DNA of 64,000 nt from Okamejei kenojei (Eukaryota). The DNA lies in NCBI GenBank assembly GCA_035221665.1, contig CM069169.1:6262001-6326000 (forward strand), read 5' to 3'. The notes under the pieces were generated by a model. The model was not told the origin of the DNA. It saw only the letters and a program-made list of their open reading frames with translations, and made no database searches. Below are positions 9,301 through 59,335 of the stretch, in pieces (the first letter of the stretch is position 1; each line of letters starts with the position of its first letter). Both the position numbers and the translations under genes were made by a program.

Positions 9301-12300
9301 AATGTGGACAAAAAAACAAATAGTGGAAGCTGTAATTCAGACTCAAAATATCTGTAAAGTTGAAAAGTCATATAACTATGGTATTTTCTCAATAATTGTG
9401 ACTTCAAATTAATAACTTTACCAGCACAGAAAATCAAATTACTGGGACTGAAAAATAATCTACTTCTTACTGATCAAAATCTCAATTTCATACAACTCAC
9501 AGGAAACTCTTTTCAATCATGTAAAAAAATAACCATTGACGTAAAAGGAGTGAACACAACCAGCCCGCGAATATCCATGAGATCGCAATCCCCACCCATT
9601 TTAAGTCAATCCAACTGAACGTTTGCTGCCAGGTTAAAATGATCCTGGTGCAAAAGATGTGAAATTATACCAAGCATTTATAAATCAATGAGCTATAAAT
9701 CAGTCGAAGTACAATGTTTAATTATAAATACTGTATTTAGAAAGGATAACAATTCTTAGGATAAGGTGCTAAGGCGGCTATTTTCTCAAATTTGCCCAGG
9801 AATACAGGGAAATAGCAAAAAACTTTCATTTATGTAGTGCCTTTAACACATGTAAAACACGGCTAGAATTATGCTTTAGGGACATTTTAGATGATGTACA
9901 CCCTAAACTTTCTGGGTGGTGTTTATTTCAAAAATTAGAGCACTAATCCAACAGGCCGTAACCAAAGGTGTACAGAGATCTGGAACGTTCACTGTAATAT
10001 AGGAAGTTAGGAAAATAAGGAGCACTTAGTAAACTGTAAACTACTGATGTCAGATTAGCAATATGGTAATCAAAGGTAGACACTCGCAAGGCACTTCAGC
10101 AATTATGGTCAATGGCCACAAAACTGCATTAAACAGTCATTCTTCAGCAATCAAATAATGTTTTGCTTGTATGCACCCACCACTAGGAAATGTGGTCACA
10201 TACAAGGCTTGGTCAGGCCTTACCTTCACATAGAATGCCAGAGCAGTTTGTGAGGTCAGGAAGGTTGTCATGTCAATGGTTAAAGAATAAAATTTATATT
10301 AATTCACAGTTGGGATGTACAATAGTGCACTGGGATGGATGGGTTGCAAGTTAGGAGTTTGGGTGGGGAAGATTACTATTAACAAAGTTGAGGTGTTGGA
10401 AAAAGTCTAAAGGAATGCTGGATAAGTAAATAACTTAAGGGGCCAAGTTTTTACAGTGCTGCCGTGTCACCGACCCCTTTTGTTGCACAGGTGTCAGCTT
10501 CAAAGGAGCAATGAAAGCATGTATTTGGCATCCTAACTTAGAATGTCACATGCAAAGCATCCAGAATCACAATCAAACTTCATGATACAAATGTGATTTT
10601 CAGTGGAAGTGTCTCACTGTGATGGTAAATATTCAAATAATTTAAACACCAAGTTCATAATTTCAAACTAAACTTACGCCCGTTTCTCCTCATTAATGCT
10701 ATCCAACTTCCCGCCAATAAAGATACGCAGTTTGCAACCAGACCACTTTTTCCGTGTCGTTAACAGATACGGAATGAGAATCGTCAAACCTATTAAAGCA
10801 AAGATATTGGGATTGAAAATTAAGTGATATTGGCTATATATTCATTTAACATTCTAAGATGTTTTTACATAAAGATCAAAATCTTACATTGGTATAAGTA
10901 TTACATGTGGTATCCAATAGTCAAGAGTTTTTAAATTGTCACAAGCATCAGGATAAGAACAATTAAATTCTTACTTGCTGCAGCTTTATAGTAGTTACAT
11001 TAAATGCAACACAACCAAATATACAATAGATCAGTTATTCTAGGTAACAGAAGAGAGCTAACTTTCACACCATCAATACATCAGATATGCTTTTAACATT
11101 TTCAATCAAAATTTTTTTACTCTATTATTGTTCCTCAAACATAGATTTTTCAGCTGGGAAAAAATATATTGTACAGGTTTCATAAATGTTTTCAATATCA
11201 GCATACCTAGCCATGTTACGACATTCCTTCAAACCCCACCCCAGAAAAGGGTGCATAATCTAAGGTAGCACTTCAGCGCATGACTGGGTTTGTGTTATAC
11301 AGCTTTCAGATGTATAACACATCATTATCATCTGCCCTTTTTAAGATGGATGTAAATGATCCAACAGCACAATCTGAATAGTACAAGTTGAATTCTTCCA
11401 GGAAGAATATTTCTCCCTTATTCAACATGAACATTTTACCCCTGAATGTAGGAGTTTGCTATGTGTAAATTGGATGCCATGTTTTAAAATAGAAAAGTGA
11501 CTATGATGTCACGGAAACAGGCCAATCAGCTCAACTCAATAACACCATCCAGTGGACACCCTCCATATTAATCACAATCTCAGCAGTTGGTCATCTACAC
11601 CATTAAATGCTGTTTTGAATTATTTCAATGACTATAAAATGATTTCATGATCTTAATGTCATGAAAGACATCTTAATGCAAGCCTGTCCTACTTTCATAA
11701 CCAAAGATCTTTTTAATTAAAATGAACACAGCCACAAAATCTTATAATTTTGATCCATGCATTAAAATTAGATGTGTAGGAAGGAACTGCAGATGCTGGT
11801 TTAAATCAGACACAAAATGCTGAAGTAGCTCAGCGGGACAGGCAGCATATCCGGAGAGAAGGAATGGGTGACATTCTGGCTTGTGACCCTTCTTCAGACT
11901 GCATTAAAATTAGATGTTCTGGACAATAATATGGTTCATACCTCCATCATCAAACAGCCACCAAACATCTATTGTACCTTTCCCTTGATTCATTTGGAAT
12001 TGAGCACTAACTTCCAATTGGCGTTGATTGAAATTAGCAGCATAGCCAGTAGCGACTTTAAAACCTGAATATGAAAAAGAAAGTATTGTATTTTGTGTCG
12101 TTAATATTAACTGCCAAGGAACAGTGTACAAATTCACCACGTCCTATTTATTCAATTTCAATAAATAAATCTAGTTTGTTAATTTGGGATTTGAGCCCAT
12201 CTCAAATGTGGTCTGTTAATATTGGTTTCGGAGTGGTTTGAAGCAAAATTAAGCAAATAGGGCTCTAACATTTGACAGTTACATGGATCCTACAGGCTAA

Positions 12301-58749: not shown

Positions 58750-59335
58750 TGGACTATATTGGCTATGAGCTAAGGATATTTCAAATATTATCAGAACAAA
58801 ACAGCAGTTGTTATATTCTCCTGTGGTTGTGCTCAGTCTGCCTAGACTTGCAGGATCTCCCATTTTAACTCCCCTTCCCATACCAACCTCCATTTCTAGA
58901 GTAACGCCACACGTAACGTGAAGGAACAACACCTCATTGTGCTCCCGTAGCTTACAACACCACTGCAGAAACATTGAATTCTTCTATTTTAATTAACACC
59001 CGCCCCCACCCATATTTGTCTCTCAAAATTCCGGCTCTCTCTTCTCTTTCCCCCCCACTACAATCAGTCTGAACTGAAGATGCTGGTTTAAACCAAAAAT
59101 AGACACAAAAAGCTGGAGTAACTCAGCGGGTCAAACAGCATCATCGATGGAGAAAAGGCAACGTTTCGGATCAATAACTGGGTCTGAAGAAGGGTCTCGA
59201 CTCAAAATGTCACCTATTCCTTTTCTCCAGAGATGCAGTCCGACCCGCTAAGTTACTCCAGCTTTTCGCGTCTATCCACCAGAAATTCTACCTGACCTGC
59301 TTATTATGTCTATTTTTGGCGCATCTGCAGTTCAG
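58750..59335 (+). mobile_element. Degenerate Penelope-like GIY-YIG endonuclease C-terminus followed by an inverted terminal-repeat pair
   Basis: YIG (58755-58763), HFNSPSH, EQHLI and NIEF remnants; hammerhead-like CTGAAGAAGGGTCTCGACTCAAAATGTC at 59184. Confidence 0.65.

Follow-up and report, generated by a model that had tools for sequence, protein, structure and literature searches.

The window analysed here is a 64,000-nucleotide stretch of the Okamejei kenojei genome (contig CM069169.1, positions 6,262,001 to 6,326,000). It includes an exon of an SLC12A (NKCC-type) cotransporter gene and, scattered along its length, 21 pieces of one family of short repeats at 17 sites, 12 on the minus and 9 on the plus strand (Table 1). 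These repeats are copies of a terminal module of about 138 bp, consisting of a minimal hammerhead motif and a tail, from a Penelope-like element of the Neptune/Nematis type. The pieces were counted with a refined profile, the first one having been built from seven window copies. In five chunk-shuffled windows the best match to the family profile was no better than E 0.13, and reversed random loci gave 0 matches. The preliminary description had listed 15 positions, and a piece of the family lies at each of them; those at 1632 and 8443 had been missed. Its figure of roughly one copy per 4 kb is also borne out, since there is about one site per 3.8 kb in the window, a density typical of the genome (one per 3.2 kb).

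Table 1. Features of the window. For pieces of the repeat family, "model" numbers are positions along the module profile.
Position	Strand	Feature	TSD or match
1632..1698	+	Old partial module, model 30-97, without ribozyme core	Profile E 4e-7
6507..6618	-	Old module, model 15-132, without core	
6684..7300		G-rich tandem tract with long poly-G run, then GC-rich sequence; possibly the 5' region of a plus-strand gene	
8443..8526	+	Old module, model 16-102, without core	
11773..11901	-	Single stub, model 4-138, long end; catalytic G mutated	18-bp TSD, 11758-11775/11900-11917
11943..12062	-	Host-gene exon, SLC12A (NKCC-type) cotransporter	E 7e-9 to SLC12A2 chains
12772..13023, 18130..18288, 26353..26467, 35775..35948, 56098..56266, 58435..58622		Second abundant dispersed family (repeat sets D13, D15, D16, D18, D19); presumably akin to a tRNA-derived V-SINE/HE1-type element	
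14603..14881	-	Frame that may hold another exon of the SLC12A/NKCC-type gene	
17508..17598	-	Old divergent module, model 7-96; cut site altered	
30391..30533	+	Single stub, model 2-136, short 5' duplication; core broken	16-bp TSD, 30375-30390/30534-30549
30694..30833		Head-to-head pair without ribozyme: long arm 62-138 (-), short arm 56-109 (+)	17-bp TSD, 30680-30696/30822-30838
32227..34006		Element with 80-nt inverted ends, 91% complementary, and broken transposase frames; taken to be Tc1/mariner-like from translated pieces	
34090..34338		Head-to-head pair: long arm 3-138 (-), motif complete; short arm 2-104 (+), broken	
36295..36369	-	Stub, model 7-104; internal deletion removes half of the ribozyme	
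37981..38080	+	Single stub, model 5 to short end; catalytic G mutated	16-bp TSD, 37965-37980/38081-38096
39095..39168	+	Stub beginning within the ribozyme (model ~29)	14-bp TSD, 39081-39094/39169-39182
45835..46049		Head-to-head pair: long arm 19-138 (-), short arm 12-108 (+)	16-bp TSD, 45822-45837/46042-46057
47211..47320	-	Stub from model 19; 5' half of the core absent	
49348..49396	-	Shortest stub, model 59-107, 35 bp between TSDs	15-bp TSD, 49343-49357/49393-49407
50445..50553	-	Old module, model 3-131, without helix II	
57175..57405	-	5'-truncated element: last GIY-YIG codons (57405-57363), pyrimidine-rich UTR, module 8-108	
58828..59286		Compound site: degenerate endonuclease end 58828-58996 (+), UTR, first bases of the module, then a head-to-head pair	
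59067..59286		The head-to-head pair of the compound site: 59174-59067 (-, model 21-131) and 59182-59286 (+, model 6-110)	
60261..60621		Three direct repeats of ~70 nt, spacing 137-152 bp	
61639..61792		CA-rich low-complexity array	
62302..63615	-	437-aa ORF2 fragment of a non-LTR retrotransposon, presumably L1-like	RVT_1 E 1e-6

TSDs of 14-18 bp flank 7 of the 17 window sites; the same search found them at 17 of 111 random genomic sites and at 3 of 120 controls. With direct repeats at their borders, the pieces are thus separate insertions. Four window sites hold head-to-head pairs. The stub closest to the cotransporter exon lies in an intron, in the sense orientation relative to the host gene and about 40 bp from a splice donor. 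Eight of the 21 pieces span the hammerhead motif and two of them keep both core and helix II, but only one, at 34223-34090, preserves core, helix II, ACGU palindrome and helix I together; the module at 57175-57405 has an intact core, and its palindrome and helix I are not intact. No window copy matches the consensus exactly. Two copies had been described as still attached to the end of an endonuclease-like ORF. This is correct for the first, whose 12-residue protein end is encoded by the last codons of the truncated element; the second remnant is degenerate and begins at 58828, and nothing matched at 58750.

The motif, GU-CUGAAGA-A-GGGU-CUCG-ACCC-GAAA-CG-UC-AC, fits letter for letter the minimal consensus in the part of the published alignment compared (PMC4209133), which upholds both the motif consensus first proposed and its assignment to the minimal type I hammerheads. 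The features of that type, namely the core CUGANGA...GAAA...UH, the bulged base, the G10.1-C11.1 pair and the palindrome, are present in the parent elements and in the class majorities. A scan against Rfam, proposed earlier as a check, nevertheless gave 16 matches at E<=10, none of them to a hammerhead family. Genome-wide, the first consensus has 62,089 exact matches, and the motif with intact core and paired helix II has 93,123, each against 0 in the control. Random sampling of eighty 10-kb stretches at round coordinates (800 kb in total) gave 341 pieces at 247 sites, from which we estimate 1.17 +/- 0.19 million pieces per genome; the module accounts for 32,931 of the 800,000 bp sampled, or 4.1%. 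The high copy number claimed for the family is thereby confirmed. Published motif counts are about 4,000 in the coelacanth and about 9,000 in Xenopus (in the portion of PMC4209133 drawn on here), against 93,123 in this genome, although the descriptors differ and the ratio is a rough one.

Once inserted, copies decay neutrally, with the core changing at the rate of the tail. Deviations from the class majority amount to 112 of 1,906 cells (5.9%) at non-CpG core positions, 379 of 5,294 (7.2%) at conserved tail positions and 143 of 1,255 (11.4%) in helix II. At the CpG positions of the hammerhead they rise to 401 of 1,420 (28%), in agreement with the earlier remark that many deviations are CpG-type transitions. 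Complete motifs remain in 12 of the 165 pieces in the first 400 kb sampled. Helix II conservation and covariation had been named as a check on the ribozyme, and the outcome is divided: every class majority retains helix II, but no two-sided covariation was found among copies, and changes at pair 4 of this helix are mostly uncompensated, the partner being usually unchanged (among the 100 listed of 2,233 changed copies). The classes differ in loop II, in the cut base (C or U), or in a U-A pair that has become U-G by change of one partner (pair 4 of helix II, helix I). Such differences keep the fold but count as weak evidence; the class masters are too alike for compensatory covariation between classes to show. 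Structure prediction for three complete modules and a single ribozyme piece gave z-scores of -0.7 to +0.4 and no hammerhead fold, and the dimeric fold is disfavoured by nearest-neighbour energy (-6.7 vs -26.6 kcal/mol). The relevant parts of PMC4209133 and PMC11167929 report activity that is low or depends on protein, and the lack of a predicted preference for the active form, whether monomeric or dimeric, agrees with this. Rare tandem hammerhead duplications with a period of 38-44 bp also occur (L171; G000:C1:2018411-2018521), and these could fold as cis dimers; joints going back 37-39 nt were seen in RNA-type contigs from other organisms' runs.

To the Penelope origin proposed in the preliminary description can now be added the full-length parents for which it had called. 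These are about 3.95 kb long and encode a reverse transcriptase (RT) and a GIY-YIG endonuclease (EN). All eight long copies fetched, which were picked for presence of the 5' part, carry the module at both ends (in one of them the 5' module is partial), with an ATG about 34 nt downstream of the 5' module. In the pairs listed they are about 94-99% alike, and the frames of all eight are broken. A 912-aa open frame at locus L081 contains the motifs YIDD (RT) and YIGET (GIY-YIG) with a cysteine linker between them; its matches to RVT_1 (E 1e-5) and GIY-YIG (E 0.0016) both fall below the Pfam cut-offs. The translations show a CNRRRCNTC-type motif, i.e., a CX2-5CxxC linker between RT and EN, and by this linker the parent is assigned to the Neptune/Nematis type. 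Of the two we prefer the Neptune clade proper, because it is the one with the linker that has been reported in vertebrates. A PDB sequence search with the parent ORF gave 0 matches, and in a Pfam search with two short remnants no family was matched. In the young parent family (L081-L093, L242) the ORF exceeds 1,000 codons, and a long proline-rich region separates its N-terminal domain from the RT. Just past the 5' module of L147 and L241, the start codon lies within the splice-donor-like AAG|GTATG, where splicing would delete the ATG. Young Penelope copies are also found in or beside a Tc1-like transposon at L082, L091 and L140.

A same-strand module lies downstream of 67 of the 76 distinct endonuclease ends in the fetched loci. 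The intervening UTRs are pyrimidine-rich, about 90 to 330 bp long and class-specific, and retain an AG immediately before the ribozyme core across UTR classes. First-look candidates in the 2.76-Gb genome, which are not copy numbers, amount to 116,113 for the endonuclease end and 27,928 for an RT piece. Because the module stands at both ends of the parent, it serves as the 3' end of one unit and as the 5' leader of the next; the earlier term "end fragments" is thus right as regards the 3' terminal module and incomplete in that this module forms the 5' leader of the parent as well.

The ends of the copies are regular. Their 3' ends fall, by profile boundaries, in two zones at about 96-112 and 128-138, some 30-35 nt apart and each about 10-20 nt past a CCAGCAT repeat. 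These two zones reflect the optional tail already known from related elements, which in PAc marks two internal sites where reverse transcription begins. As to the 5' ends, which were mapped for 306 of the 341 random pieces (35 with a short 3' end or at a locus edge were dropped), 114 fall at model 2-9, an 8-nt window at the 5' edge of the ribozyme, and 26 pieces reach past -60. Starts within the module number about 132, which makes premature termination a common event; 22 of the 306 starts form a small second cluster at model 45-49. Of the copies extending as far as the 5' edge of the ribozyme, about two thirds end at that point. A simulation of uniform truncation was flat, with 16 of 150 starts recovered at model 2-9 vs 12 true ones, and pyrimidine content upstream of the starts is 0.48, against 0.78 in real UTRs, which argues against a hidden UTR. 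Among 64 single copies, 23 have a G immediately before the start, where about a quarter would be expected, and a G is found there in few of the junctions defined by a TSD; as a test of a cap-derived G this is weak. By hand count an extra G is present in 43 of the first 100 genomic matches listed, part of which is accounted for by palindrome junctions. All 24 RNA runs listed consist of contigs; in the 4 that were compared, the family is present in contigs of other organisms, which carry no information on ends, strand or level.

Neighbouring pieces tend to be inverted. In 1.2 Mb, 80 of 124 adjacent pairs are head-to-head. Among the 67 of these that could be classified (13 could not), 55 combine one long and one short end, where half would be expected (p 5e-8); the random loci alone give 38 of 47 classifiable among 62 head-to-head pairs. 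The junctions of these 62 pairs are mostly unique. Identical junctions, which were met in a separate comparison, have a common TSD and reflect segmental duplication. A MITE-like spread of ready-made hairpins was considered and rejected on account of the mostly unique junctions.

From these data we consider it likely that the short insertions are TSD-flanked run-off cDNAs of the leader of the parent's uncut RNA. In the proposed mechanism, the element protein would bind the leader of its own RNA and nick both target strands about 13-16 bp apart, and reverse transcription would begin internally at either of the two tail sites. Copying would then proceed until the template runs out at the 5' terminus of the RNA, predicted at TCAGTC just before the core, a sequence that we take to resemble the initiator (Inr) consensus. 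Priming at one nick would leave a single stub, while priming at both, with a different start site at each, would leave a head-to-head hairpin with one long and one short arm and a TSD. Where the 3' module of a longer transcript is used instead, long copies would result. In the stubs the ribozyme would simply be carried along. Its cleavage in the parent probably requires a dimer assisted by protein, and RNA that has been cut would seldom act as template. The RNA start, the nick geometry and the action of the protein are inferred, and the mechanism is carried over by analogy from the Anolis element PAc, which is a Poseidon element and belongs to another clade than the parent here. As reported in the portions of PMC11167929 used here, PAc cleaves and extends both strands, starts in vitro at two internal sites and copies to the RNA 5' end, mainly from uncut RNA. 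An internal Inr-type promoter has been reported for the Penelope of D. virilis (PMC2377424), and an Inr-like sequence for a rotifer pLTR in the part of PMC3846280 consulted. Against the run-off reading stand the finding of TSDs at a minority of sites only, the many starts within the module, the weak cap-G signal and the variation of the short-to-long ratio among sequence classes.

The preliminary description had regarded the family as SINE-like. In its explicit form this would mean that every stub, equipped with an initiator and with the two internal sites at which reverse transcription begins, is transcribed where it lies and copied anew by the parent protein without need of a defined 3' end. 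The 138-bp module would then be a self-sufficient mobile unit with its own Pol II start, requiring no poly(A) tail, tRNA head or ribozyme cut. The module does hold in cis all that the run-off explanation requires, and stubs starting at 1-10 outnumber UTR- or EN-attached copies by about 3 to 1 (125 vs 41). The ratio of short to long copies varies among sequence classes (44:6 to 26:18, p 0.044), which self-propagating stubs could also produce, and rotifer solo pLTR sequences can mobilise DNA in trans according to the part of PMC3846280 consulted. However, long members, still attached to UTR or endonuclease, are present in all six sequence classes, the parent modules match the class majorities, and the head-to-head junctions mostly differ. 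These observations fit stubs made from parent RNA and do not establish the independent propagation implied by the earlier label: we regard such a route as unlikely, and self-sufficiency of the module as having a correspondingly small chance of being real.

It is quite unlikely, in our view, that the 5' pile-up reflects a hard stop or template feature, or self-priming of the pairs on antisense RNA, rather than an RNA start. On the first version, the RT would be blocked on entering the pyrimidine tract while copying the 3' repeat, either because the tract is protein-bound or because it ends in a splice acceptor (CAG|TCTG). The AG retained right before the core would suit this, as would the D. 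virilis intron that ends at helix I (in the part of PMC4209133 consulted). A splice-acceptor origin is nonetheless not supported, since 84 of the 114 starts lie at model 2-6 and include the would-be intron end, and no GT..AG joint occurs among the joints listed from RNA-type contigs. Self-priming on antisense RNA has been proposed for head-to-head rotifer pLTRs (in the section of PMC3846280 concerned), but a pairing of one long with one short end does not follow from it. Both versions explain the data less well than run-off from the 5' end of the leader. A third route, in which ribozyme-cut or circular monomers serve as templates as in retrozymes, is largely refuted for this genome and very improbable: minimal hammerheads do cleave weakly as dimers (PMC4209133, in part) and a few duplications of the motif in tandem are present (1 among 126 matches), yet starts at the cut site (model 35-37) number 4 of 306, a background level, copies are dispersed or head-to-head rather than tandem (29 of 124 adjacent pairs are on the same strand), and the dimeric fold is energetically disfavoured.

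The insertion of Penelope-like elements and the role of their hammerhead have so far been followed in one in vitro system, to which about a million short, regular-ended insertions add a readout on the scale of a genome. These insertions are consistent with priming on both strands from two internal start sites, argue against ribozyme-cut RNA as the usual template in this genome, and name, through their 5' pile-up, a candidate RNA start. The individual parts are known; the scale is unusual and is useful as a mechanistic readout. If the module were self-sufficient after all, it would represent a new route to SINE-like elements, one that has yielded about a million copies; the roughly 90,000 hammerhead cores still intact could then, as dimers assisted by protein, cleave pre-mRNAs of the host.

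Published work already covers minimal hammerheads in pLTRs and solo motifs scattered through genomes, as well as pLTRs in inverted orientation and tails on one side only. Literature searches, at the level of titles and abstract openings, returned no description of this family or its density, which Repbase, Dfam or Lunse et al. could already list. The closest relatives of the motif are the minimal hammerheads of metazoan Penelope-like elements (Cervera and De la Pena 2014), whose consensus CUGANGAH-G..helix II..C-GAAAN-palindrome-NUH is matched here. In the portion of that work compared (PMC4209133), they share with the present family the bulged base, the G10.1-C11.1 pair, the CG palindrome, the presence in both pLTRs and the occurrence mostly as dispersed single motifs with some close opposite-strand pairs. 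The helices here are short, with 2 bp in helix I, as in the Culex, Drosophila and Oikopleura rows, and 4 bp in helix II; cartilaginous fish are absent from the portion of the alignment compared.

The parent has the same order of RT, CX2-5CxxC linker and GIY-YIG as the C-terminal EN+ elements Neptune and Nematis (Craig et al. 2021). As set out in the sections of PMC8557442 relevant here, these also have the partial-tandem pLTR, the adjacent inverted 5'-truncated copy and the 30-40-bp tail at one end; the last two features recur here in the long-and-short pairs (55/67). Unlike those elements, most insertions here consist of the terminal module only, and a long proline-rich stretch precedes the RT. 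The Anolis Poseidon element PAc (Frangieh et al. 2024; PMC11167929, in part) resembles the present family in that two adjacent 3' end sites define the tail, the hammerhead lies at the pLTR-ORF junction, and uncut RNA is, in PAc, the main template; its ORF begins inside the ribozyme, whereas here the ATG lies about 165 nt downstream of the core. Finally, non-LTR retrozymes (Li et al. 2026, bioRxiv 10.64898/2026.07.22.740005), reported in one chondrichthyan genome, are likewise non-coding, derived from Penelope-like pLTRs and equipped with a type I hammerhead. In the portion of that preprint compared, however, they are defined as head-to-tail tandem arrays and are depleted from introns, whereas the copies described here, with a single close tandem among 126 motif matches and pairs that are mostly head-to-head, are TSD-flanked insertions that occur scattered singly or in head-to-head pairs, and an intron contains at least one of them.
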